From Fibrobacteria bacterium (GTDB lineage: Bacteria; Fibrobacterota; Fibrobacteria; UBA11236), in contig JAYTSD010000050.1 in NCBI GenBank assembly GCA_043745805.1, forward strand, positions 31,775 to 95,774: a stretch of 64,000 bases of DNA. The letters run 5' to 3'. Below, in pieces: positions 29,669-42,898 of the stretch. The position numbers and the translations under genes are program-made. How positions within the stretch are numbered: the first letter of the stretch is position 1; each line of letters opens with the position of its first letter. The notes below the pieces were generated by a model. It saw nothing but the letters and a program-made list of their open reading frames with translations. It did not search any database and had not been told where the DNA came from.

Positions 29669-29701
29669 TTGTAGGGGCACAACATTTTGTGCCCCTACAA
29701 C
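29668..29701. repeat. GTAG-family REP-like perfect palindrome between convergent aspS and copA
   Basis: GTTGTAGGGGCACAA-CATT-TTGTGCCCCTACAAC, 15-bp perfect arms. Confidence 0.75.
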
Positions 29702-31929
29702 CTTATTCTCTTCAAACGCAAACTATTCGTTAATACAAAAACACTACTCAATCCCATCGCTGCTGCGGCAAGCATGGGATTGAGTTGCCAATTGAGCCAA
29801 GGTGCAAAGGCTCCCGCGGCAACGGGAATTAATAAAACGTTATAAGCAAAAGCCCAAAACAAATTCATTTTAAGCGTGCGCATCACTTGTTTCGCTAAGC
29901 GAATTCCTTTTGCAAGAGTGCGTAAATCATCGGACATTAAAATAATATCTCCCGATTCAATGGCTAAATCCGAACCTTTGCCCATGGCTATGCCTACATG
30001 GGCTTTGACTAAAGCGGGAGCGTCATTAATACCGTCGCCAGCGAAAGCCACTTTTTTTCCTTGTTGATGGAATTCTGCTAAAATATTTGCTTTGTCTTGG
30101 GGTAAGATTTGCGCGCGAAAATGGGCAATGCCTACTTGTTGTGCGATGGCTTTGGCGGTGGCCTCTTGGTCACCAGTTAACATCCAAGTTTCTAATCCCA
30201 TTTGCTTAAAGGTTTTAATCGCTTCCACGCTTCCTTCCTTTAAAGCATCGGCAATACTAAAAAGGCCGACCATTTTTCCATCTACCGCTAAACAAAAAAC
30301 CGATTGATTTTGTTGCATTAAGCTTCGCATCTCTTCTTCGAAAATCGAGGCTTTGTCCGTTTGGGTTTGAATCCATGACGGAGATCCTAAGAGAACTTTT
30401 TGATTATGGATTTCTCCTTGTACCCCTTTTCCTGGAATAGCAATAAAGGCATTCACTTCGGGTAAAGAAATATTTTCTTTTTGTGCGGCTTGTAGAATGG
30501 CGCGCGCAAGCGGATGTTCACTATGCTTTTCCAATCCTGCCGCTAAAGTTAATAGTGCAGACCTATTCCAACCCGTAACAGGTAGAATACTTGTAACTAT
30601 GGGATGACCTTGGGTTAAAGTACCGGTTTTATCTAGGGCTAAGGTATCTACTTCACTTAAGTTTTGTAAAGCCATGCCATTTCTTATCACCAAACCGAGT
30701 TCTGCCGCTTTACCCGTGCCTACCAAAATGGCTGTGGGAGTGGCTAAGCCCATGGCACAAGGGCAGGCTATAACTAATACAGCCACGGTATGGACTAGTG
30801 CTGGAATGATTGAAGGCTTAGGCCCGAACATAAACCAAGCGATAAAAGTGAGAATGGCGATAGCTAAAACAATGGGTGTAAAAACCATTACCACTTTATC
30901 GACTTTATCTTGTATAGGTGGTTTGGAGAGTTGAGCCTCTTCCACCATACGAATAATTTGTGACAAAACCGTATGCTTGCCTAAACGTTCCACACGAAAT
31001 GTGAAATATCCATTTTGATTTTGCGTCGCTCCAATTACCGATGCACCAATTGTTTTGGAAACAGCTTTTACTTCACCACTGATCATACTTTCATCGACAT
31101 AAATTTCGCCGGAAAGAATAATTCCATCGGTGGGAATTTTTTCACCCGGTTTAACCGCAATGGTATCTCCAATTTGCAAATTCTCGATGGCGATATCGGA
31201 TTCGATTCCATTGCGAATTACATGCGCCGTTTTAGCTTGCAATTCCAAAAGTTTTTGTATGGCCGCTTGGCTGCGCCCTTTGCTTTTGGCTTCCAGCATT
31301 TTACCCAATAAAATCAGAGTTATAACTACGGCCGCCGCTTCATAATAAACATGCCTTGCCTCAATGGGAAATAATTGCGGTAATAAAGTCACTAATAAAC
31401 TATAGCCATAGGCCGCGCCAGTGCCAGTCATGACGAGGCTATTCATATTCGGACTTAAATCCACATAAGCGCGCCAACCGGAACGAAAAAATCTTTTGCC
31501 CGGCCAAAACAAAACCGGCGTGGCCAAAGCGAGTTGTAGGAATTGCCAAAAAGCCATGGAAGGTTGCAAATGCATTTGCCAAGCCATAAAACTAGGATGC
31601 AACATGGGTAACATAGCGATGACTAATAAGGGTAAACTAAAAAATAAGGCGATTTGGAAATCTTCTTTTAAAGCCAAATATTCTTTTTGCATGGCCACTT
31701 TTGGATCGAGTCCTGGCGCAGAAGCTTTATAACCAGCCTTTTCAATGCTCTGATATAAAGCGGGCAATTGCACTATCTCGGATTTGAATTTTACCGAAGC
31801 TTGCCCTGTTACCAAATTCACACGCGCTTCTTCCACACCCTGTGTTTTTTTCAAAGCGCGCTCAATACGACCTACGCAATTGGCGCAGGTCATCCCTTCG
31901 ACTTGTATTTCAGCGGTACTTGAGGACAT
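29695..31929 (-). CDS. copA: Copper-translocating P1B-type ATPase
   Basis: GMTCANC HMA domain, CPC, DKTGT, SEHP, GDGIND, YN and MGLSS motifs. Confidence 0.95.
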   Translation of the reverse strand: MSSSTAEIQVEGMTCANCVGRIERALKKTQGVEEARVNLVTGQASVKFKSEIVQLPALYQSIEKAGYKASAPGLDPKVAMQKEYLALKEDFQIALFFSLPLLVIAMLPMLHPSFMAWQMHLQPSMAFWQFLQLALATPVLFWPGKRFFRSGWRAYVDLSPNMNSLVMTGTGAAYGYSLLVTLLPQLFPIEARHVYYEAAAVVITLILLGKMLEAKSKGRSQAAIQKLLELQAKTAHVIRNGIESDIAIENLQIGDTIAVKPGEKIPTDGIILSGEIYVDESMISGEVKAVSKTIGASVIGATQNQNGYFTFRVERLGKHTVLSQIIRMVEEAQLSKPPIQDKVDKVVMVFTPIVLAIAILTFIAWFMFGPKPSIIPALVHTVAVLVIACPCAMGLATPTAILVGTGKAAELGLVIRNGMALQNLSEVDTLALDKTGTLTQGHPIVTSILPVTGWNRSALLTLAAGLEKHSEHPLARAILQAAQKENISLPEVNAFIAIPGKGVQGEIHNQKVLLGSPSWIQTQTDKASIFEEEMRSLMQQNQSVFCLAVDGKMVGLFSIADALKEGSVEAIKTFKQMGLETWMLTGDQEATAKAIAQQVGIAHFRAQILPQDKANILAEFHQQGKKVAFAGDGINDAPALVKAHVGIAMGKGSDLAIESGDIILMSDDLRTLAKGIRLAKQVMRTLKMNLFWAFAYNVLLIPVAAGAFAPWLNWQLNPMLAAAAMGLSSVFVLTNSLRLKRIRL

Positions 31930-32191
31930 CCATTAACTCCTTAACCATAGCATCAGCTTCTTTATGTTTGGAAGCTTGGGCCACATGATTCACTAAATGT
32001 CCTTCCAATATGACATCATTAGCTTTCGCCAAGCTTCCCATTACGGCTTTAACTTGCTTCATCACATCGACGCAATAAATTTCAGGATTCTCAAGCATAC
32101 GCGCAATAGCATCTAAATGGCCTTTTGCCACCTTAATGCGTTTGGCGGCTTCTAAGCGTGGTGCTTCGGGCATACATAAATGTTTATGCAT
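31910..32191 (-). CDS. csoR: CsoR/RcnR-family metal-sensing repressor (C-H-H type)
   Basis: GHL..I.RM, YCVDV and HLVNHV motifs; lies between copZ and copA. Confidence 0.9.
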   Translation of the reverse strand: MHKHLCMPEAPRLEAAKRIKVAKGHLDAIARMLENPEIYCVDVMKQVKAVMGSLAKANDVILEGHLVNHVAQASKHKEADAMVKELMDVLKYR

Positions 32192-32397
32192 TAGTTTTCC
32201 TTTATGAATTCGGCTTGATAGCCTTCTTCTTTTACAACGGCGATTAAAGTTTGCATATCGGCATTTCCTTCGACCTCCGCTATACCCTTAGCTAGCGATA
32301 CATTTGCGGACGCTACTCCGTTTACGCTTTTTAAAGCCTCGGTGACAGAGTGTACGCAATGGTTACAAGTCATACCACTGATTTTTAAAGTAAGCAT
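32191..32397 (-). CDS. copZ: Copper chaperone CopZ (HMA domain)
   Basis: GMTCNHC and EEGY motifs; start re-called after the GGGGAG RBS. Confidence 0.92.
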   Translation of the reverse strand: MLTLKISGMTCNHCVHSVTEALKSVNGVASANVSLAKGIAEVEGNADMQTLIAVVKEEGYQAEFIKEN

Positions 32398-32423
32398 ATT
32401 TTCTTCTCCCCGCTCCATTTATC

Positions 32424-32484
32424 ATACCTACCCCACCTGGGGTGGGTATATAAAGAATATACTGCGATCTTTGAGGGTTGTCAA
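32424..32484 (-). promoter_or_regulatory. Sigma70 promoter and CsoR-type operator of copZ-csoR-copA
   Basis: Minus strand TTGACA (32484-32479), 17 nt, TATATT (32461-32456); C/G-tract palindrome ATACCTACCCCA-CC-TGGGGTGGGTAT at 32424-32449. Confidence 0.8.
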
Positions 32485-32620
32485 GTTTTCACAAACGGGC
32501 ATAAATTCTTGCGAGGAATACTTTTAAACGCAGGCTTGGCATGGTGGGCCTATTAACGAATATCATTGTTATCAAACAAGATGGGTTATGTGAACGTATC
32601 CTTTCAAAAATTATTACTAA

Positions 32621-32833
32621 GCTCAGTCCTTGAGTTTTTTTTGCGGCGAGCAAGCTAAATTTTTTCCTGAAACCACATACTTATTGCTTGCTCGCTACAA
32701 AAAAACTCAAGGATTGAGCGAAACCAAGAAGGGGTAGCCGAGGACCCCGCGGTTTTATTTAATCGTGATTTCAACGATTTCATAATCGATTAAATAAAAC
32801 GGTGAGGCCGAGGCTAGGGGAAGGCATTCCCCT
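32621..32833. repeat. Multi-hairpin palindromic element (MITE/REP-like or structured RNA)
   Basis: Inverted repeat of 35/34 nt (32621-32655 / 32686-32719); perfect 14-bp stem (32752-32765 / 32787-32800); AGGGGAA-GGCA-TTCCCCT (32816-32833). Confidence 0.65.
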
Positions 32834-32866
32834 CTAGTTCTGAACCATTGGCTTTTGAAACTTATG

Positions 32867-34243
32867 TTACCGTAACACATGTTGTTCGATCAGACCTTTG
32901 ACTTCGGTCATGGCAATACTATTTCCTTGGGGAGCCGCGGCTGCGAAATTAGTAATGAACACTGGCTTTTGTTCCGGCTTATCAGCAGGTGTGCCATGGC
33001 TACCTTTAACAAGTTCCGGCATAAGCGGAATTACATCCATATAATAACGAAAGCCCAAAATTTTCTTTAAGAGAGTCCAAGCCATTTTCAATTTGATCAA
33101 AGGGATTTTTGGATTGAAAAATAATTCCACTGGGTCATAACCAGGTTTACGATGAATGTCGATACAGTGCGCAAAATCGGGGGCTTTGGAATCGTCCAGC
33201 CAATAATAATAGCTGTACCAAGTATCCGGATCGGCCATTAAAATGATATCACCAGCACGAGTATGTGCAAGGCCAGCTTCTTCAATAGCAGATCCTATTA
33301 ATATTTTTCTTGTGCCTTTTTGTTTTTCAAATAAGGCGGCTACTGCGGGAATATGTTTTTTGTCCTTAACATAAATGTGGCAAATTTGATGATCGACCAC
33401 GGCAAAAGCTTTACTTGCTCCTGCATCCAAGGTTTCCCAAGTTAAGGTATTGCGAATTTCAAGTAAGCCGGCATTTCGTAAAATACGATTAGGGTGAATA
33501 ACATGGTTAACTTGGGTGATACCGTATTCTGAAAGAATAATCACACGCACATTATGCTTAGCGTAAAAATCGAGTAAATCCCCCACAACAACATCAATTG
33601 CCCGTAATTCCTGCTGTATTTCGGGGGCATGTGGTCCCAGCTTTTGTAAACCATAATCCAAATGCGGCAAATATACCAAGCTCAAAGTTGGTTGATATTT
33701 GGTGAAAACTAATTTGGAACTTTCCGCTATCCACTTAGAAGAACCTATGCCAGAAGCAGGTCCCCAAAAATTCATAAATGGAAAAGGCCCTAAGGCATTC
33801 ACAAGTTCATCGCGTAAACTTACCGGTTCGGTATAAACATCAAATACTTTACGTCCATCGGCAGGGTAATGCGGACGTGGGGTAACACTCCAATCCGCAG
33901 AGGAATACATATTGTACCACCAAAACATTTTGGCGCAGGTAAAGTCGGGATTTTGTTTTTTCAATGTGTCATATAATTTTTCGCCTTGTATCAAATAATT
34001 GCTTTGTTTCCAAAAACCGACTTCGGCAGTGTCGTGAAAATACCAGCCATTGCCGACTATACCATGTCCTTCCGGTTTGAGTCCGGTTAAAAAAGTCGCT
34101 TGACTACTGCAAGTTACGGCGGGAAATATTTCTTCTAAAGTGCAGCCTTTATTCTCATCCCAAAATTTTTTGAGGCGAGGAGTATGGGCTCCAATTAATT
34201 CGCGTGTAAGTCCTACCACATTTATGACAGCGGTTTTATGCAT
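32867..34243 (-). CDS. eboF: Alkaline phosphatase/nucleotide pyrophosphatase family protein, EboF-like
   Basis: VINVVGLT, PAVTC, HGIVGNGW, FWWYNM, YLPHLDY, DIHRKPGYDP and VKGSHG motifs; adjacent to eboE. Confidence 0.85.
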   Translation of the reverse strand: MHKTAVINVVGLTRELIGAHTPRLKKFWDENKGCTLEEIFPAVTCSSQATFLTGLKPEGHGIVGNGWYFHDTAEVGFWKQSNYLIQGEKLYDTLKKQNPDFTCAKMFWWYNMYSSADWSVTPRPHYPADGRKVFDVYTEPVSLRDELVNALGPFPFMNFWGPASGIGSSKWIAESSKLVFTKYQPTLSLVYLPHLDYGLQKLGPHAPEIQQELRAIDVVVGDLLDFYAKHNVRVIILSEYGITQVNHVIHPNRILRNAGLLEIRNTLTWETLDAGASKAFAVVDHQICHIYVKDKKHIPAVAALFEKQKGTRKILIGSAIEEAGLAHTRAGDIILMADPDTWYSYYYWLDDSKAPDFAHCIDIHRKPGYDPVELFFNPKIPLIKLKMAWTLLKKILGFRYYMDVIPLMPELVKGSHGTPADKPEQKPVFITNFAAAAPQGNSIAMTEVKGLIEQHVLR

Positions 34244-35474
34244 GCGATAAAGTTTCTTTCAATGAAGTTTCTTTGAGTACAAATTGCAATTCAGCGGCAA
34301 TACTTTTGGCTAATTCTTCTGCATTACGAGGACGATATTCTTCCGGTAAAACATTCCAAGTGTATGTTTCCACCTCAAAATGATCGCATAGGTTTTTTTC
34401 TAATACAATTTGGCATGCCTTAAGCATATCTGCACGCGTCGTACCTATCCATTGCGTATCCCCTGGGTTACCTAAGGTTTGCGCCTGAATGGGTAAATGA
34501 TAATGCACCCGCCAAGGTTCTTGCCATGAAAGCTCGGGATCGGCTAAGGCTTGAGGCAAATCATCATAGCCTACGGGTCGATGCGGATTTTTTATGCGCG
34601 TTTGATGTAAAAAGCGTGCTTCTACAAAAAGTTGGCGCATCTCAAAGGAAATTTTTTCGGGATCAGCTTTGAATTCTAAGGCACTCGATAACTGCATTTT
34701 TACGATGGGAATTTCATTTTGTATCAGCCAAGAAATCACTTGTTCCGGCGCCTCAAATTGCACGGCTTGATGACAGGTATCATAGCAGATACCTAGGTAA
34801 CGTGAAAGTTCATTGGGTGAAATTCCGCGCTCATGAGCCATAGGACGCACGTGTTTTTCCCAAAATAAAAGCACTTGTTCGGTATATTCTAAAACACAGC
34901 CCGGTTCGGGCTCCAAACCTAAGCGAATACATTTTCCAGTTTTATTTTCTAAAGAACGTGCCTCTTTCACAAAGGTCAATAAATTATGGCTAGCCATTTG
35001 AGAGTGTCGTTCTGTCCATCCTTCACGCCAACCTAGGGGTAAAGTGGAAATTGAACCCATATTATCCTTTACCAAATAGGCTAATAATTTGGCGCAACCT
35101 ACGGTGTATTCCAAGCGTTCAGGACGGGTCCAATCGGGAATATATACTTTGGTTTTCACCACAGGCTCATGAAAGCGACCATAAGGAAAGGCATTGAGCG
35201 TAAATACTGATAAGTCGTAGGCGGCCAAAATATCGCGGATTTTTCCCATTAAATAGGCATCCATATTTTGCATTAAGCCCGCATGAAACCACAATCCCAT
35301 GGGCAAATTAGCCCATTGCATATGTTGGCGTATTTGCGTCCCAAAGTAGCTCATGGTGTTTTCCCATTCGATAAAATCGTTAATGGCATGAACATTCGAG
35401 CAATAACAAAGTTTTTTCACTTCTTTTAACTCTCTGGGTCTATTGAGGTTTTTTCTGCCTATACTATTCGACAT
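34236..35474 (-). CDS. eboE: Metabolite traffic protein EboE (xylose isomerase-like TIM barrel)
   Basis: YCSNVH, TLNAFPYGRFH, VY.PDW, LEPEPGC, CYDTCH, WRVHYHLP and EVETYTW motifs; alternative GTG start 35420. Confidence 0.88.
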   Translation of the reverse strand: MSNSIGRKNLNRPRELKEVKKLCYCSNVHAINDFIEWENTMSYFGTQIRQHMQWANLPMGLWFHAGLMQNMDAYLMGKIRDILAAYDLSVFTLNAFPYGRFHEPVVKTKVYIPDWTRPERLEYTVGCAKLLAYLVKDNMGSISTLPLGWREGWTERHSQMASHNLLTFVKEARSLENKTGKCIRLGLEPEPGCVLEYTEQVLLFWEKHVRPMAHERGISPNELSRYLGICYDTCHQAVQFEAPEQVISWLIQNEIPIVKMQLSSALEFKADPEKISFEMRQLFVEARFLHQTRIKNPHRPVGYDDLPQALADPELSWQEPWRVHYHLPIQAQTLGNPGDTQWIGTTRADMLKACQIVLEKNLCDHFEVETYTWNVLPEEYRPRNAEELAKSIAAELQFVLKETSLKETLSHA

Positions 35475-35647
35475 AGACTGGAACTTAAAAGTTCATTTAA
35501 CAAACAGTAACCCAAAATAGCCTGTCCATGTTAAATTAATTTAAAAAGAAGGCTCGAAATAGCACAATCACTGGTTTTAGTTCCAGAATACTTGCTTCTC
35601 AGGCTTCACAGAAATTATTAAGTTGGAATCTAGTTCGAAAGTTATTT

Positions 35648-36829
35648 ATGCCTTTAGAAAATACTCGCAGTAGTTCCTCAGAAACTTTACAATCCCAAGA
35701 TTTAGGTTATCAAACTTTATTATCCCCTTTGCTAGGGAATATGCCAATTCATTATGGCGCGAGAGCCATAGAGTATTTGCCCGAATTATTAAAAAATTTA
35801 AATCCTGATAAGGTTTTTATTCTCTCAGATCATCATGTGTTTCGGCTTTATGGTTCTTCCATTTTGCAATTATTGTCCTCGCGTTATGCTCCGGAGACAA
35901 TTTTAATTCCCGAAGGTGAAAATGAAAAAAAAATTTCCAATTTGGAATTTATTTGTGAAGAAATATTTGAGCGCGGCGTAACCAAATCATCCTTGGTATT
36001 GAACTTAGGTGGTGGTGTTATTTTAAATATGGGCGGACTCGCTGCAAGTCTAGTGTATCGAGGCATTCGTTTTGTACAAATTCCTACTACTTTGATGGCG
36101 CAAAGTGATGTCATCATTTCAAATAAACAGGGCATTAATTTTGGCGGCGGGAAAAATCGTTTGGGCCTTTATAATTCACCTGTTTGCGCGATTGCCGACA
36201 GTCGTTTTTTTAAAAGCGAATCGCCTCGACAAATTAAAGCAGCCATGGTCGAATATGCGAAGAATGCTTTGTTATTAGGCGGAAAACATTTTATTGAAGC
36301 TTCACGTTTTTTTGCTTTGGAAGACAAAACCTCGGCTTTTAATTTGCAACATATGCTAGAAAATAGCTTGGCACAAAAATTTGAAATCGCAAGACTCGAT
36401 CCTTTGGAAAAAGGTTTGGGATTAATGTTGGAATATGGCCATACAGTTGGACATGCTTTGGAGTATTTGTCGCAAGGCCGTTTATTACATGGCGAAGCCG
36501 TTTATCACGGTATGAATATAGCCGGTATGTTGGCGGTGCAAAAAGGCATTATGTCCACGGCAGAATGGAAAAAACAAAGTGTTTTACTAAGCCATATTCA
36601 AGGCATACCCACTATTCCTGCGGACATATCAATTGGGCAAATTTTGCAAACGGTGCAGCGCGACAATAAAAAAGTAGGACAAGATATTGCATTTATTATT
36701 TTAAAAGCTATTGGGGATGTGTATCGCCCTAATTATGCTTTTTCGGGTTCTTCCGCCTCTGTGCTCACGCCAGTTACGGTAACTGAGCTAAGTCCAGTGC
36801 TAGCGGAGTATTGGGATGCTCTGTTATAG
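35648..36829 (+). CDS. Sugar-phosphate cyclase, 2-deoxy-scyllo-inosose synthase (BtrC)-like
   Basis: DHQS fold with GGGVILN, SD..IS.KQ..N...GKN, PRQIKA, KNAL, EK..GL..EYGHTVGHA, HGEA and DNK. Confidence 0.75.
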   Translation: MPLENTRSSSSETLQSQDLGYQTLLSPLLGNMPIHYGARAIEYLPELLKNLNPDKVFILSDHHVFRLYGSSILQLLSSRYAPETILIPEGENEKKISNLEFICEEIFERGVTKSSLVLNLGGGVILNMGGLAASLVYRGIRFVQIPTTLMAQSDVIISNKQGINFGGGKNRLGLYNSPVCAIADSRFFKSESPRQIKAAMVEYAKNALLLGGKHFIEASRFFALEDKTSAFNLQHMLENSLAQKFEIARLDPLEKGLGLMLEYGHTVGHALEYLSQGRLLHGEAVYHGMNIAGMLAVQKGIMSTAEWKKQSVLLSHIQGIPTIPADISIGQILQTVQRDNKKVGQDIAFIILKAIGDVYRPNYAFSGSSASVLTPVTVTELSPVLAEYWDALL

Positions 36830-37667
36830 CACGGGTTCTTTACCCGATCATTTCTCTTTCCCACAAATCATCTCCACATTAAAGCCAACGCCTTTTCGGG
36901 GGTTGGAATTGGTCATTACTCCAGCCCATTTACAACATGCCCATGATACTGCCTACTGGGTCACTTTGCGTCAGGAATTTGCTCATCACGGCTTATGTTT
37001 TCGCAATATACATCTAGGTTACCCTCTATTATTGAGTGAATCACCGCATGCTCCGGGACTAGGATCTTTGGATAAAAGCGGAAGAGATATAAAAGCGCAA
37101 GCGGCCTTGTCGGCGGCGCGCATTGCTACTTGGTTGGAAGCGCCGCATATTACCTTCACTACGGGTTTACCCGAAGGCAACGAATCCTCACAAGCCTTAC
37201 AAATAAATTATTTAGAAGAATTTTTAAGAGATTTTATTCAAGTTAAGTACGAGGATTTCGAATTGAATTTAAGTCCCAATTTGAAAATTTTAATTGAACA
37301 AGAGCCAGAGCATATTATTCGCAGCACCGATCAACTCATTGATTTATGTAAAATTTTTCCAGGGGAAGTGTATGCCAATTTCGATATTGGTCATGCGGCG
37401 GTGATGGGTGAAAATATTCCATTGTGTTTGCAAGATATAAGTCATGCTATGGTGAATTTGCATTTGGAAGATATAGTAGGGCAAGTGCATACACATAAGC
37501 TTTATGGGCAAGGAAACATTGATTTTGATTCAGCATTTGGTGCCTTAAGGAATATTGGGTATAGCGGAGATTTTACTCCCGATTTATATCCGTTTAAAGA
37601 TGATTATGCTCATGCGATACAAGCCTCGCAAGATTTTTTAGAAAAATATTTGGGACCATTAAATTAA
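36816..37667 (+). CDS. Sugar phosphate isomerase/epimerase (AP endonuclease 2/IolE-like TIM barrel)
   Basis: EQEPE, NFDIGH, HLED, H...G.G.IDF motifs; overlaps the cyclase gene. Confidence 0.8.
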   Translation: MLCYSTGSLPDHFSFPQIISTLKPTPFRGLELVITPAHLQHAHDTAYWVTLRQEFAHHGLCFRNIHLGYPLLLSESPHAPGLGSLDKSGRDIKAQAALSAARIATWLEAPHITFTTGLPEGNESSQALQINYLEEFLRDFIQVKYEDFELNLSPNLKILIEQEPEHIIRSTDQLIDLCKIFPGEVYANFDIGHAAVMGENIPLCLQDISHAMVNLHLEDIVGQVHTHKLYGQGNIDFDSAFGALRNIGYSGDFTPDLYPFKDDYAHAIQASQDFLEKYLGPLN

Positions 37668-37675
37668 AATAAGTT

Positions 37676-38872
37676 TTAATTTTTCTGGATAACTTCCGTA
37701 AATATCTGCTGTAACTTTACGGATACGGTATCCCAAGAGCGACCTTGGCCAATAGTTGTGATTTTTGAATAATCCCATTTTTTTTGTAGGGCGGCATTTA
37801 AAGCATCGGCAATGGCGTCCACACTTCGTTCTTTCAATAAAATGCCTAAGTCTTCATTATAAATAATTTCGGGCACGCCGCTTACGGGTGTAGCAATTAC
37901 CGGAAGTCCAATGGCCTGCGCTTCACAAACCACATTGGGCCAGCCCTCACGCGAACTCGCTAAAATGAAAATATCCGCAGCACTATACCAATTGGGCAAT
38001 AATTGATTTCCCACCGCGCCCACTAAAAGGATTTGCGACTCTAATTTTTTTTCTTTAATAATTTTTTCTAAAGCGGGTCGTTCTGGGCCTTCGCCCACTA
38101 TCACATAATAAAGTTCAGGATTTTCTAATTGTGCAATGGCTTGTACAATTAAATGAAAGCCTTTAAGCTCTACCAAATGGCCCACGGAGAGAACGATTTT
38201 TTTGTTGAGCGGTAATGCCAATTTTGTGCGAGCTACTTGGTTATCTATGGCTTTAAAAAGCTGGGTGTCTACGCCATTACCAATCACTAATGATTTTTCG
38301 GAGGCTAGTCCCAAATTCAAGGCAATACTCTGTAAGCCTGAACTGACGGAGATCAAACGCGTACAGGCTTTTAAGGTTTGTAATATTTGCGGTTTAATTT
38401 CGAGAATATGCGGGAATACATTTAAATCTGTGCCGCGTGCGGAAACAATAACTGGAATGCCTAATATTTTTCCTAAAGCAATTGCTGCTGTGCCATCAGG
38501 ATAAACATAATGCGCATCAATAATAGCAATTGGGTTTTTGCGATGGATTTCCTGTAAAAGTTTTTTTGCTCCACGAGCCATGCCTTTAGCATGAAATTTC
38601 ATGCCCACCTTTGGCAGCACTAGGTAACGAGGATGATATAGGGTGTGCGTGGAAAATTTTTCTTCGCGTGGCATACGTGCATAAGCCGCATAGCGCGGGC
38701 TATAGTGTTCTATGATTTTTGCAGCCCAGCGGGGAAAATACGGAACGGGTGCGACTATGGTCCATTCATGATGATAAAGCTTAGTAAAATTATCCATGCG
38801 ATTACGCACAAAAACCGCATGCACCGGCTGTTGCGAATTAGGAAACAGCGTGGTGAAGGTGAGAATATGCAT
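37676..38872 (-). CDS. Glycosyltransferase family 4 (TuaC-like)
   Basis: TTLFP, APVPYFP, DAHYVYPDG, ARGTD and SSREGWPNVVCEA motifs. Confidence 0.9.
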   Translation of the reverse strand: MHILTFTTLFPNSQQPVHAVFVRNRMDNFTKLYHHEWTIVAPVPYFPRWAAKIIEHYSPRYAAYARMPREEKFSTHTLYHPRYLVLPKVGMKFHAKGMARGAKKLLQEIHRKNPIAIIDAHYVYPDGTAAIALGKILGIPVIVSARGTDLNVFPHILEIKPQILQTLKACTRLISVSSGLQSIALNLGLASEKSLVIGNGVDTQLFKAIDNQVARTKLALPLNKKIVLSVGHLVELKGFHLIVQAIAQLENPELYYVIVGEGPERPALEKIIKEKKLESQILLVGAVGNQLLPNWYSAADIFILASSREGWPNVVCEAQAIGLPVIATPVSGVPEIIYNEDLGILLKERSVDAIADALNAALQKKWDYSKITTIGQGRSWDTVSVKLQQIFTEVIQKN

Positions 38873-40090
38873 TTAAAGTTTTAAGCCTAAATAATTATAA
38901 ACTTGGCGATGCGCTTCAATTAATTTTGACCAAGACCTTTTAGCTTCCACATACACGCGACTATTTTTTTCTAGTCGATGCATTTCTTCGGGATTCGCAA
39001 AAACTCTTTCGATGGTTTTCACTAAATCATTTACATTATCTGCTTTAAAGAGCCAACCATTTTGACCATCTTCAATTAACTCTTTAATGCCACCCACATC
39101 GCTTCCTAAAACCACCTTTTCCATGGACATGGCTTCTAAAGGTTTGAGCGGAGTTACTAGTTCCAATAAGCGCGAGCGAATACGTGGATACACTAATATA
39201 TCTATTAACGAATAATACCCATTTACTTTTTCATGCGGCACTTTACCGACTACAATCACTCGCTCGCTAACATTTAATTTTTGCGCTTGCTGTTTTAATT
39301 CCTCTTCTTCCCCATCATAACCGCCGCCTACAATGACACAGCGCAAATCAGGATGATGAGGCGCAAGCTTGGCCATAGCTTCCACCAAATATTTTAAACC
39401 TTCATAGCGATAGAGTGATCCAATAAAACCAATCACTTTTTTGCCTTGTAAACCGAGTTCCGCTTGGAGTTTACTATCGAGTGCTGGTGGAGGAAATTTG
39501 CTTACATCCACGCCATTAGGAAGGACAAATAATTTCTTCTCATCAATGCCACGTTCTAATAATCCTTTGCGCAAACCTTCGCAAATAGTGACTACGGCAT
39601 TAGCATTTTTACAAGCCGAGGTTTCAAAAGCCTTGGTAGCACGATAACGCAAGCTGCCCTCATGCGTCGATCCATGGTCCACGGCGGCATCTTCCCAAAA
39701 GGCGCGTATTTCGTAGACTACGGGTAAACCTAATTTTCGTCCCGCCCAAATCGCGGGCCATGCATTAAGCACCGGCGAATGCGCATGGAGAACATCAGGC
39801 TTTTCCAATTTAACCACTTCTAAAATTCTTTTTTCCAAAGCTTTCATTTGGAGAAATTCACGTAACACGGGAAATTTATGCCAAAAAGTATTTTTAACCG
39901 GCGTGCGGAAAATTTTTTGTCCGTCAAATTCTTCTTGCGGTGCTTTTTGGCTTTCTCCTTGTTTTACCGAAGTTAAAGCAATAGGATCAATACCAAGCAC
40001 GGCCTTTTGATTATTTAATATGTAACTGGTACGGAACGTGTAACCGCTGAATAATGGCAAATAATGATCCAGTAAATGCAATACCTTCAT
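38873..40090 (-). CDS. GT4 glycosyltransferase, PEP-CTERM/exosortase A system-associated (TIGR04063-like)
   Basis: SGYTFRT, HAHSPVLN, YEIRAFWEDAAVDHG and VTPLKPLEAM motifs. Confidence 0.88.
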   Translation of the reverse strand: MKVLHLLDHYLPLFSGYTFRTSYILNNQKAVLGIDPIALTSVKQGESQKAPQEEFDGQKIFRTPVKNTFWHKFPVLREFLQMKALEKRILEVVKLEKPDVLHAHSPVLNAWPAIWAGRKLGLPVVYEIRAFWEDAAVDHGSTHEGSLRYRATKAFETSACKNANAVVTICEGLRKGLLERGIDEKKLFVLPNGVDVSKFPPPALDSKLQAELGLQGKKVIGFIGSLYRYEGLKYLVEAMAKLAPHHPDLRCVIVGGGYDGEEEELKQQAQKLNVSERVIVVGKVPHEKVNGYYSLIDILVYPRIRSRLLELVTPLKPLEAMSMEKVVLGSDVGGIKELIEDGQNGWLFKADNVNDLVKTIERVFANPEEMHRLEKNSRVYVEAKRSWSKLIEAHRQVYNYLGLKL

Positions 40091-40115
40091 GCGAAATCCT
40101 CAGAATTAATTAAGG

Positions 40116-42026
40116 CTATGGTTGAGTTTGAAATTTGTTATGCCATAGTGCGAAAGATAACATGGCGAAAAGCGGAAAGGTGTGATTATGCATACCAGTT
40201 TGATGCTCATTCCAAATTTGCTGTAAATATTTTGTTTCGAATAAACCGGTGCTGGCTAAACCCTTTTGATCGAATAAATGCGCATGGGTGTATTCTTTTA
40301 ATTCCTTACGCAGCCATTGTTGCATGGGTAAAGAAAAGCCGCTTTTGGGACGATGAAAAATGGATTGTGGTAGCATTTGTTGCAGCGATTTTTTAAATAC
40401 CCATTTGGTTTCTTGTCCACGAAGTTTAAATGCGGAAGGCATAGTTGCCGCTAACTCTACCAAGCGATGATCCAAAATAGGAACCCGTACCTCCAAAGAT
40501 ACGGCCATACTGGCCCGGTCTACCTTGGTTAAAATATCATCCACTAAATAAGTTTTAAAGTCTACATATTGACTACGCGAAAGAGGGTCTTTGCTTTTGC
40601 AATTTGCATAATGGTGTTCAAATACCGAAAGTGAATTGTAATTCCCTAAAGACTTTTGCAATTCTTGCGACAAAACCTTGGTTTTCATTTCCGGCAAAAA
40701 ATGTGACATCGAGCGGAAATAACCTTCCGCAGGAGAAACTGACAAGTTACGCAGTAAAGTTTTAGCTCTTAATTTTTGCGGCAGCCAATCGGCTTTAGGA
40801 TACAAGTTTGCCATCGTTCCAAATAAAGGGCGACGAATTAGCGAAGGCAAATAAGATCGTAGGCGATTTTCAAAAGCATCGAATTTATAACGGCGATAGC
40901 CGGCAAAATTTTCATCACCACCATCACCGGAAAGGGCTACTGCCACTTGGCTACGCGCCATTTGACAGACATAATAAGTGGGTATCATCGACGAGTCGGC
41001 AAATGGCTCATCATAATGCCAAGCTAATTTATCCAATACCGAAACGGCATCGGGCTCTACAATGAAATCACTATGCTGGGTTTTAAAAAATCCAGCCGTT
41101 TCGCGCGCTTGTGAACTTTCATCATAAGCCTTATGACTGAATCCTATAGTGTTTGTTAAAATCGGATTCGCCGAATGCTTGGCCATGAGAGCCACTACGG
41201 CAGCGGAATCCACACCACCACTTAAAAAAGCTCCGAGTGGCACATCGCTTTCCATATGGCTATTTACCGAATCATCTAAGAGTACGAGCAAATCTTCTTG
41301 CGCTAAATTTTCGCCGCGCTCGTCCGCATATCGATCATTAACCGTAAAATCCAAATCCCAATAGGCTTGCAAATGCAAGTCACCTTGCGAGGAAATTCTC
41401 ATCCAATGTCCAGCGGGTAATTTGCGAATATTTTTAAAAATACTTTTGGGTGCGGGCACATACATTAAAGACAAATAATCGGATACGGCTTGCGTATCAA
41501 TTGCGCGATCAAATCCCGGATAGGCTAAAATGGCTTTGCACTCTGAAGCAAATAGCCAAGTATTTCCGCAGGACCCATAATAAAGTGGTTTAATACCTAA
41601 ACGATCACGGGCAATAAATATACAGCGTTCCCGATGATCATAAATCGCAAAGGCAAACATACCCCGTAACATGGACAAACATTGCATGCCATATTCTTTA
41701 AAAGCATAGAGCAAGGTTTCGGTATCGCTGCGGCTATGGACGGGATGTCCTTTTTGTAATAAATCTTTTTTGATTTCATGATGATTATAAATCTCACCAT
41801 TGAATACCAAGGTATAAAGCCCATCGCAATCGGTCATGGGCTGCTTGCCTGCTGATAAATCTATAATGCTTAAGCGCTTATGGGATAGGCCTGCAGTTTG
41901 ATCGGTGGCTATAAAGATGCCATCTTGATCGGGACCTCGATGATGCAAGGTTTGATTCATTTGTGTAAGCGTTTGCGCAAGGCCGGGAACGGCTTTTGAG
42001 CTAATTAATCCAGCCAATCCACACAT
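40116..42026 (-). CDS. asnB: Asparagine synthase-like glutamine amidotransferase (EPS/PEP-CTERM-associated type)
   Basis: MCG start, HRGPD, RLSIID, FNGEIYN, LSGGVDS, SGDGGDE and KVDRASMA motifs. Confidence 0.92.
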   Translation of the reverse strand: MCGLAGLISSKAVPGLAQTLTQMNQTLHHRGPDQDGIFIATDQTAGLSHKRLSIIDLSAGKQPMTDCDGLYTLVFNGEIYNHHEIKKDLLQKGHPVHSRSDTETLLYAFKEYGMQCLSMLRGMFAFAIYDHRERCIFIARDRLGIKPLYYGSCGNTWLFASECKAILAYPGFDRAIDTQAVSDYLSLMYVPAPKSIFKNIRKLPAGHWMRISSQGDLHLQAYWDLDFTVNDRYADERGENLAQEDLLVLLDDSVNSHMESDVPLGAFLSGGVDSAAVVALMAKHSANPILTNTIGFSHKAYDESSQARETAGFFKTQHSDFIVEPDAVSVLDKLAWHYDEPFADSSMIPTYYVCQMARSQVAVALSGDGGDENFAGYRRYKFDAFENRLRSYLPSLIRRPLFGTMANLYPKADWLPQKLRAKTLLRNLSVSPAEGYFRSMSHFLPEMKTKVLSQELQKSLGNYNSLSVFEHHYANCKSKDPLSRSQYVDFKTYLVDDILTKVDRASMAVSLEVRVPILDHRLVELAATMPSAFKLRGQETKWVFKKSLQQMLPQSIFHRPKSGFSLPMQQWLRKELKEYTHAHLFDQKGLASTGLFETKYLQQIWNEHQTGMHNHTFPLFAMLSFALWHNKFQTQP

Positions 42027-42059
42027 GAGTACAAATCTAATTTAGTATGCGCATAAAAC

Positions 42060-42093
42060 AAAAAAAGTCTCTACCGAAGCAGAGACTTTTTTT
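42060..42093 (-). terminator. Intrinsic terminator after the PEP-CTERM gene
   Basis: Minus strand AGTCTCTGC-TTCG-GTAGAGACT followed by a T run (cUUCGg loop). Confidence 0.85.
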
Positions 42094-42118
42094 AAAACCA
42101 TGAAGATGATATTAATGT

Positions 42119-42898
42119 TTATACGAAGCGACGACGCGCCGCAAATGCCATTGCGAAAAGACCAAAACCCATCAAGCCTAAGGTGGCTGGTTCTGGAACA
42201 GGTTGTACAGATTCCATCATGATAACCATATCATTATAATCATAATCCCAATTAGCGCTTTGTGTATCTTCCCATGCGATAAGGTAATGATTGGAGGTCA
42301 TGTTAAAAGCAAAAGGATTGCTTTGTAATTTTACTTTATCATTTTCACCTTGATAGGAAACCATGTGATCCGCAAGATCGCTATTTAATGCAGGGTCAGA
42401 GTAGAAATAAGTTCCAGCGCTTGAGGCATTTCCCTTGGAAAGAAGGTAATAGCCAAAATTAGCGGAAGTAAAAGTTGCTAAAGGTGCGGTCCAAGGATCA
42501 TTAACATGGATACCCATGTCCACATCAATAATCACGCTTGCTTTTGCTGGACCACCGGAGGCCCAAGTGCCTACTGGGTTGGCATTGCCAGAGAATAATT
42601 TTACACGATTGTTTGGATTACCTACGTCGTAGATTCCAAATTCATTAAATGCAGCATTTCCGGCTATTTCAACTACGAGAGAAGCGGCAGCTGTACCAGA
42701 AGCGGTCCAAGTCCAATAGGCATCGGAAGTGATTTGATCATTGTTTACATCAATACTAGTTGCGCCAATATTATTAAAAACGGTTTGTAAGCTAGTAGAA
42801 GTGGAAGACGAATTCTCGCCCAATGGATTAACAGGTGTGGACCAAGTTGCGGCGGCCAATCCACAAATTCCAAGTATTGCTAATTTGTATGTATTCAT
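42119..42898 (-). CDS. PEP-CTERM sorting domain protein with DUF4114-like domain
   Basis: Signal peptide, AWED...DYDYNDMV, C-terminal VPEPATLGLMGFGLFAMAFAARRR. Confidence 0.92.
   Translation of the reverse strand: MNTYKLAILGICGLAAATWSTPVNPLGENSSSTSTSLQTVFNNIGATSIDVNNDQITSDAYWTWTASGTAAASLVVEIAGNAAFNEFGIYDVGNPNNRVKLFSGNANPVGTWASGGPAKASVIIDVDMGIHVNDPWTAPLATFTSANFGYYLLSKGNASSAGTYFYSDPALNSDLADHMVSYQGENDKVKLQSNPFAFNMTSNHYLIAWEDTQSANWDYDYNDMVIMMESVQPVPEPATLGLMGFGLFAMAFAARRRFV

Follow-up and report, generated by a model that had tools for sequence, protein, structure and literature searches.

How does an ebo system obtain its cyclitol when EboD is missing? The question is raised by a short gene module in a 64,000-nucleotide stretch of a Fibrobacteria bacterium genome (Fibrobacterota; assembly GCA_043745805.1, contig JAYTSD010000050.1, positions 31,775 to 95,774; the whole stretch is referred to here as the window), in which eboE and eboF lie divergently to genes for a sugar-phosphate cyclase and for a 283-residue xylose-isomerase-like TIM barrel, here called TIM283. 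The ebo genes are described as a prenylated-cyclitol pathway linked to the algal morphogen thallusin (2026 preprint, bioRxiv 10.64898/2026.05.21.724671), and EboD was defined as a new clade of sugar-phosphate cyclases in work that also noted genomes without eboD (Yurchenko et al., 2016; PMC5133447). Actinomycetota ebo clusters without eboD are reported to use inositol genes instead (PMC12904256; bioRxiv 10.64898/2026.05.21.724671), namely an inositol-3-phosphate synthase and the putative isomerases/dehydratases Ino1-3 (bioRxiv 10.64898/2026.05.21.724671). Judged by its sequence, the window cyclase is a paralogue resembling 2-deoxy-scyllo-inosose synthase (DOIS), and is neither AroB, the 3-dehydroquinate synthase (DHQS) of the shikimate pathway, nor EboD; its gene, eboE and eboF together make up a conserved unit. 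We suggest, with a probability of roughly 0.65, that the window encodes the core of the ebo system in a Fibrobacterota form, in which the cassette of cyclase and TIM283 has displaced EboD as the source of the C6 cyclitol.

No description of an ebo variant with a DOIS-like cyclase was found in the full-text literature searched, and the terms 'Fibrobacter', 'DOIS' and '2-deoxy-scyllo-inosose' do not occur in the accessible main text of the thallusin preprint (bioRxiv 10.64898/2026.05.21.724671). The initial annotation of the window had proposed the entry of a deoxy-inosose into an ebo-type pathway as a candidate new cyclitol route. A deoxy-inosose supply is already a known logic for ebo (as cited in PMC12904256; bioRxiv 10.64898/2026.05.21.724671), and what is new is the enzyme supplying it.

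Family placement of the window cyclase

Every cyclase motif quoted in the initial annotation is present in the window protein, which reads GGGVILN (residue 121), SDVIISNKQGIN (153), PRQIKA (193) and EYAKNAL (202), followed by LEYGHT (261), RDNKK (338) and LTPV (373). The aligned motifs of BtrC (PDB 2d2x) are GGGLTGN, SDSVLSIKQAVN, PRQVKA, ELVKNML, FEYGHT and DNKRG, and the patterns GGGxxxN, SDxxxSxKQxxN, ExxKNxL, EYGHT and DNK are common to the window cyclase, BtrC and three proteins named DOIS by the Prokaryotic Genome Annotation Pipeline (PGAP), from plasmids of Sodalis, Streptomyces and Burkholderia. The host genome's own AroB carries SGGVVGD, VDSSVGGKTGIN and LNYGHT, with GGKTGIN in the lysine loop where the window cyclase has SNKQGIN, and three canonical EboDs carry GGGAxLD, NDSGVGVK and LDFGHW. 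The contrast between AroB and DOIS motifs drawn in the initial annotation agrees with the actual sequences of BtrC, the PGAP-named DOIS and the host AroB. The window cyclase carries the DOIS-specific motifs, including the Glu of EYGHT, which we take to correspond to BtrC Glu243, its position being read in the BtrC alignment. Beside the catalytic motifs, its subclade shows two changes of its own, SDV in place of SDS/TDS and ILN in place of VGN.

Besides the motifs, model cut-offs, BLAST scores, trees and the presence of a separate, true aroB all uphold the earlier proposal that the cyclase is DOIS-like and belongs with neither AroB nor EboD. Its score on the aroB equivalog TIGR01357 is 234 bits, under the cut-off of 305, and the AroB active-site motifs GGKTG and NxGHT are replaced. 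On NF004852, a model that catches EboD, it reaches 153.9 bits against a cut-off of 333; four canonical EboDs, from the plasmid clusters of Aureibacter tunicatorum (eboABCDEF), Ketogulonicigenium vulgare and Mycetohabitans endofungorum and from the Fibrobacterota genome G243, score 526-561 bits. BLAST gave 160-182 bits to the PGAP-named DOIS, 103-113 to EboDs and 125 to the host AroB, and in phmmer comparisons with PDB chains the best match was BtrC 2d2x (146.3 bits), with ValA at 82.9 and DDGS at 65.6 bits. A true aroB with DHQS motifs, fused to a shikimate kinase (aroK-aroB, 376 bits), lies on another contig, a separate aroB elsewhere in the genome being what the initial annotation had left to be looked for. 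It and the DOIS-like cyclase are the only two DHQS-superfamily genes in this 99% complete genome, in which no NF004852 match at an E-value of 1e-60 or better, and hence no EboD, was found.

The aroK-aroB gene forms one 550-aa frame (G000, the window's genome, contig C8, 147647-148684, locus L001), and the AroB-level matches in most Fibrobacterota genomes likewise fall in open frames of roughly 540-630 aa, which suggests that the fusion may be common in the phylum.

Two trees place the cyclase away from AroB and EboD. In a tree of 54 rows, EboD (4 rows) forms a separate clade with support of 100/100, and the window cyclase falls, apart from the DHQS-like rows, within a DOIS-like superclade of 40 rows (100/99). 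Within this superclade the three PGAP-named DOIS form one clade (clade B, 100/99) and the window cyclase belongs to another (clade A, 99/94), in which its own subclade (100/99) sits on a long branch. A larger tree of 128 rows was calculated from 150 representatives, less 30 removed by length (<320 or >460 aa), with the addition of the window cyclase, three EboDs, the three named DOIS and the host AroB; here EboD is monophyletic among the DHQS-like rows (support 100), and the window cyclase lies in an 89-row clade (support 99) that contains every row of the EYGHT type. In phmmer comparisons with BtrC, members of clade B score 264, 258, 226 and 204 bits, P0125 of clade A scores 200, the window cyclase 146 and an EboD 94.5. 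Because the cyclase belongs to a clade sister to the annotated DOIS, conversion of glucose-6-phosphate to 2-deoxy-scyllo-inosose (DOI) should be regarded as a plausible activity rather than an assigned one.

The sister group of the window subclade (100/100) consists of two representatives, P0145 and P0154, in which the catalytic motifs are lost, with WRAVNTRRVAIH in the place of SDxxxSNKQxxN and ARYGEP or RQYGYP in the place of LEYGHT; from these residues, both may be pseudo-enzymes.

A conserved ebo module in one Fibrobacterota order

The closest homologues of the cyclase are all from Fibrobacterota. A search of genome contigs with the single protein returned six loci (L017-L022), all from close Fibrobacterota relatives, and a survey of 296 genomes of the phylum, the window's own included, found strong orthologues (E-value of 1e-88 or better, 45-69% identity) in 31/31 other genomes of the window's family and in 3/6 genomes of a second family of the same order, the remaining genomes having AroB-level matches only. 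Across the order, sampled with 39 genomes that include the window's own and the unpublished genome G254, EboE is present in 37, the DOIS-like cyclase in 35, and TIM283 and EboA in 34 each; without G254, the counts for the family are 30/30 for cyclase and EboE and 29/30 for TIM283 and EboA. TIM283 abuts the cyclase every time it occurs, and the one genome among the 35 with a cyclase but no TIM283 (G266) has its cyclase at a contig end. The initial annotation had pointed to the neighbourhoods of homologues as informative, and these show cyclase and eboE side by side and in divergent orientation in 34 of the 35 genomes, the two genes being on two contigs in G257; eboF is kept beside eboE in related loci. 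Two of the loci returned (L020 and L022) are from metagenome-assembled genomes (MAGs) labelled 'uncultured Bifidobacterium sp.', carry a Fibrobacterota-type module with 58% cyclase identity, and appear to be wrongly labelled.

Canonical EboD above the cut-off was found only in G243 and G244, both without cyclase, TIM283 and EboA, so that the 37 EboE genomes divide without overlap into 2 with EboD and 35 with the DOIS-like cyclase. The G243 cluster runs eboB - eboF - EboD - (one gene) - eboE. The EboD gene of G244 (G244:C48:2582-3754) contains an in-frame TGA, which could be a sequencing error, the mark of a pseudogene, or recoding.

EboD and the window cyclase are members of the same superfamily, occupy the same place beside eboE and eboF and presumably serve the same supply of a C6 deoxy-inosose. 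They differ in that EboD is a clade of its own, with DFGHW where the window cyclase has EYGHT and NDSGVGVK where it has SDxxxSNKQ, and in that a TIM partner, perhaps a required one, travels with the window-type cyclase and was not found in the canonical clusters of Aureibacter, G243 and G244.

The arrangement of the module is given in Table 1; gene order and strands are as first described, with eboE and eboF reading away from the pair of cyclase and TIM barrel. Both pairs of genes overlap, eboF and eboE by 8 bases and cyclase and TIM283 by 14, and the start codon of the cyclase is uncertain, since orthologues align only from about residue 14-23. The window EboF is 49% identical to that of the Ketogulonicigenium cluster, 47% to that of Aureibacter and 43% to that of Streptomyces. 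The top plasmid matches of the window eboE are annotated as eboE, and its product is closest to the EboEs of Actinomycetota (38-40% identity). A promoter and terminator scan of positions 32000-38200 gave no excess over shuffled sequences (19 sigma-70 consensus sites against 16.9 expected).

Table 1. Features of the ebo module, in window coordinates
Feature	Position	Strand	Basis
eboF, type I phosphodiesterase / nucleotide pyrophosphatase family protein, 458 aa	32867..34243	-	PF01663, 212 bits
eboE, EboE-family xylose-isomerase-like TIM barrel, 412 aa	34236..35474	-	NF035939 TIM_EboE, 368.6 bits, cut-off 250
Divergent eboE/cyclase intergenic spacer, AT-rich, 173 bp, presumed shared promoter region	35475..35647	.	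read directly
DOIS-like sugar-phosphate cyclase, 393 aa	35648..36829	+	PF01761 + PF24621
TIM283, metal-dependent xylose-isomerase-like TIM barrel, 283 aa	36816..37667	+	PF01261, 62.5 bits

The absence of eboA, eboB and eboC, as initially stated, holds for the window itself and does not extend to the genome, where eboA-eboB and an EboC-like gene are found on other contigs. On contig C30, eboA (EboA domain NF035938, 157 bits, cut-off 50) is overlapped by eboB, a TatD hydrolase 68% identical to the EboB of Aureibacter. Contig C1 carries a UbiA prenyltransferase for which EboC is the top-scoring family (NF035940, 146.5 bits); second comes SCO3242, the type of prenyltransferase found in ebo clusters of Streptomyces. 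Its orthologue in a related MAG (locus L017) directly adjoins eboF. Both eboB and the EboC-like gene are present in 4/4 relatives checked. Two of these relatives are single-contig assemblies, with the three ebo loci at about 1.20, 1.31 and 2.03 Mb in G274 and at about 0.84, 1.27 and 1.42 Mb in G242, and because the loci lie so far apart in them the split is real and no artefact of assembly. The ebo system of the host is thus divided over three loci but largely complete.

Just upstream of eboA-eboB (L009 2936-3535, C30) is a gene for a ThrH-like phosphoserine phosphatase / homoserine phosphotransferase (250 bits, above the cut-off); a functional link between the two was considered and rejected, since this flank is not conserved in G274, G242 and G245. 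The same holds for a link between the EboC-like gene and its TetR and acyltransferase neighbours, these flanks not being conserved in G274 and L017. The eboB of G242 (G242:C1:1268312-1269190) contains an in-frame TAG, for which sequencing error, pseudogene formation and recoding are all possible.

Directly downstream of the module lies an exopolysaccharide block of the XrtA/PEP-CTERM type (window 37676-42898, minus strand), which encodes two glycosyltransferases, one of type GT4 and one matching TIGR04063 'stp3' (522 bits, above the cut-off), as well as an asparagine-synthase-like amidotransferase (TIGR03108; its 766 bits fall slightly short of the cut-off of 816.9) and a PEP-CTERM protein with DUF4114. 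The link to these glycosyltransferases raised in the initial annotation was rejected, these genes being absent beside the module in all nine related loci examined: homologues of the GT4, stp3 and amidotransferase genes were found beside the ebo module neither in L017-L022 (E-value of 1e-8) nor in L037-L039 (E-value of 1e-6). On the other side, at 29695-32191 on the minus strand, is a 744-aa P-type ATPase-like open reading frame (ORF) that, with its N-terminal metal-binding motif MTCANC and its CPC motif, resembles a copper exporter; its start is overlapped by an ORF of 93 aa.

TIM283 and the wider cyclase-TIM cassette

TIM283 matches no NCBIfam model at cut-off (best 22.9 bits), and its likely chemistry was approached through its fold. 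The AlphaFold model is of high confidence (pLDDT 95.6, pTM 0.91), and Foldseek matches it to UlaE, Art22, tagatose/psicose 3-epimerases, IolI, the dehydratase AsbF and YcjR, with TM-scores of about 0.67-0.81, E-values near 1e-11 to 1e-12 and identities of 13-20%. TIM283 thus has the same fold as these keto-sugar 3-epimerases and inosose isomerases/dehydratases, from which it is distant in sequence. The residues E161, E163, D190, H193, H216, E218, D219, H225 and H227 are invariant in the alignment, and these Glu, Asp and His residues presumably include metal ligands, which would fit the metal site of a xylose-isomerase-like fold. The formation of an enolate alpha to a carbonyl is the chemistry that this fold predicts as likely.

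Apart from its orthologues, the nearest relatives of TIM283 are four TIM barrels that partner clade A cyclases (61-72 bits), followed by the TIM barrel of the EboD-less ebo cluster of Streptomyces (46 bits, 25% identity, E-value of 2.6e-10). The canonical Ketogulonicigenium cluster also contains a sugar phosphate isomerase/epimerase, but this is unrelated to TIM283, with no BLAST match at an E-value of 0.01 or better, and it was rejected as a homologue. In composition the ebo system of the host resembles the Actinomycetota type: both lack EboD and combine another cyclitol-forming enzyme with a xylose-isomerase-like TIM barrel. The Streptomyces cluster examined runs myo-inositol-phosphate synthase (MIPS) - SCO3242-type prenyltransferase - sugar-phosphate isomerase - EboA - TatD - EboE - EboF, whereas the ring former in the window is DOIS-like and the genes of the host are distributed over three loci rather than joined in one operon.

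The cassette also occurs apart from ebo genes. A metagenome search with an alignment of 14 clade A proteins other than the window's yielded 80 sister-lineage loci, and homologues of eboA, B, C, E or F at an E-value of 1e-8 or better were found in none of them. When 74 neighbouring ORFs from 16 larger loci were scanned with Pfam, a PF01261 TIM barrel accompanied the cyclase in 15; the remaining locus, L097, contains a DegT aminotransferase, the one DegT neighbour among the loci scanned. Hidden Markov models built from the partner TIM barrels, a test that is circular for the 15 seed loci, detected a TIM-barrel gene on the cyclase strand, no more than 4 kb downstream, in 54/80 loci, and in 32/36 of those whose downstream flank reaches 3 kb or more. 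Genes for MFS transporters and for Zn-dependent or short-chain dehydrogenases are often found close by, and regulators also occur. From these sequences, the pairing of cyclase and TIM barrel appears to be older than its link to ebo.

Several individual loci deserve mention. In L113 (2894-9191) two ISL3 transposase genes and an IclR regulator stand between the clade A cyclase and its TIM partner. Two further cassettes, L064 (6478-12270) and L100 (3143-9424), stand in suggestive contexts: one is an array of UbiE/COQ5-type methyltransferase - cyclase - MFS - TIM - short-chain dehydrogenase, and in another the cassette has a LigAB dioxygenase of the type that opens aromatic rings and a LysR regulator as neighbours, with a Zn-dependent dehydrogenase coming next.

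Cyclitol supply: proposed route and rival explanations

We propose that the window cyclase, with NAD+ and a divalent metal, would act on a hexose 6-phosphate, most likely glucose-6-phosphate, and convert it to 2-deoxy-inosose through the sequence of oxidation, phosphate elimination, reduction, ring opening and aldol closure that is used by DHQS and DOIS. The translationally coupled TIM283 would then act on this keto-cyclitol by way of a metal-stabilised enolate alpha to the carbonyl, with epimerisation, keto-isomerisation and dehydration as candidate reactions, and its product would pass to the steps of the divergent eboE-eboF and of the unlinked eboA-eboB and EboC-like genes.

A number of observations weigh against this proposal. 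Substrate and product are read from family resemblance, the identity to annotated DOIS being no higher than 30-33%; the BtrC score of 146.3 bits is barely above that of the best DHQS (141.7 bits); the cyclase lies in clade A and the named DOIS in the sister clade B; and the trees hold no experimentally characterised DOIS, BtrC being compared by phmmer score only. The EboC-like protein falls short of the EboC cut-off (146.5 bits against 250). The ebo genes of G243 are distant from those of the window, with identities of 30% for eboE and 36% for eboF, which leaves a replacement in situ within the order unsupported, and because the genomes are kin, the mutual exclusivity of EboD and cyclase could stem from as few as one or two events in evolution. 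A further difficulty is chemical. During catalysis by DOIS the hexose C2 becomes C4 of DOI, a carbon that does not neighbour the ketone, and it is at this position that DOI and its 4-epimer, the product of EboD, differ. Since C4 is not alpha to the ketone, one enolate-type step by TIM283 would not interconvert the two, and convergence on an identical intermediate is not explained by the route as proposed. There may be ways round this, in that the cyclase could use mannose-6-phosphate, the downstream enzymes could accept or prefer the other isomer, or the stereocentre could be lost later, a loss that would fall in the aromatisation proposed by the thallusin preprint (bioRxiv 10.64898/2026.05.21.724671).

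The first of these ways round would be a different assignment, in which the cyclase has shifted to mannose-6-phosphate and makes the EboD product directly, while TIM283 performs further tailoring or an unrelated step. It is the simplest account of unchanged downstream Ebo enzymes, and the long branch of the window subclade, its lower BtrC score (146 bits against 200 for P0125) and its SDV and ILN changes beside the catalytic motifs would fit a change of substrate. We nevertheless consider it unlikely, as the analysis identified no residue with a known role in reading the hexose C2 hydroxyl, and the retention of the same TIM partner by relatives outside ebo suggests an inherited two-step chemistry rather than a new specificity. 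Alternatively, the cassette could make a small cyclitol product of its own and merely lie beside eboE-eboF, the Ebo precursor coming from elsewhere. It presumably does so in the sister lineages, where 80/80 loci carry the cassette without ebo genes and in the company of MFS transporters, Zn-dependent or short-chain dehydrogenases and regulators, and such independence would suit the lack of linkage between the cassette and eboA-eboB or the EboC-like gene in the host. Yet the divergent arrangement with eboE persists in 34/35 genomes, down to a cyclase identity of 43-49%; in this order EboE without EboD always comes with the cyclase, and the cassette is missing from both EboD genomes; and the 99% complete genome holds no third DHQS-superfamily gene, which together make a mere coincidence of neighbours distinctly improbable.

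Two more familiar functions would have to be considered for a protein of this kind. Its motifs and the position of BtrC as its best solved relative could indicate a genuine DOIS of an aminoglycoside-type 2-deoxystreptamine pathway, but while it shares motifs and superclade with BtrC-type DOIS, it is paired with a TIM barrel and ebo genes and falls outside the clade of annotated DOIS, which includes a Burkholderia DOIS adjoining an aminotransferase. The lack of an aminotransferase, on which the initial annotation had remarked, stands for the DegT type, which is absent from the whole contig (other aminotransferase classes were not searched); moreover, no aminotransferase, deacetylase or aminoglycoside-type glycosyltransferase lies beside the module in nine related loci, and a DegT neighbour occurs in just 1/16 Pfam-scanned sister-clade loci (of 80 fetched). 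We regard an aminoglycoside role as very improbable. The notion of a second AroB for the shikimate pathway, which would agree with the label '3-dehydroquinate synthase' given to close homologues in databases and with the match to the Pfam DHQ_synthase domains, is hardly credible given the score of 234 against the cut-off of 305, the replacement of GGKTG and NxGHT, the true aroK-aroB in the same genome and the separation from the DHQS-like rows at 100/99.

Displacement of EboD by the cyclase and TIM283 is therefore the reading that we favour, and it may be part of a broader one. Clade A cyclases and their TIM barrels could constitute a widespread non-aminoglycoside cassette that produces a modified C6 keto-cyclitol from a hexose phosphate, with the TIM barrel adjusting regio- or stereochemistry, and that was captured by ebo in one order of Fibrobacterota, where it displaced EboD. 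We put this forward tentatively, at somewhat less than even odds. If it is true, the cyclitol of ebo and thallusin-type pathways would be reached by three enzyme solutions: EboD, MIPS with TIM barrels, and a DOIS-like cyclase with a TIM barrel.

The ebo genes are present in thousands of bacterial genomes as well as in algal plastids, and their early cyclitol intermediates, and the variability of these, are still being worked out. An exchange of EboD for a DOIS-like cyclase with a TIM barrel would amount to a natural complementation experiment, indicating what the Ebo enzymes further down the pathway need in their cyclitol. Beyond ebo, the large environmental family of DOIS-like cyclases that are accompanied by a TIM barrel and not by aminotransferases may represent a further route to cyclitols.

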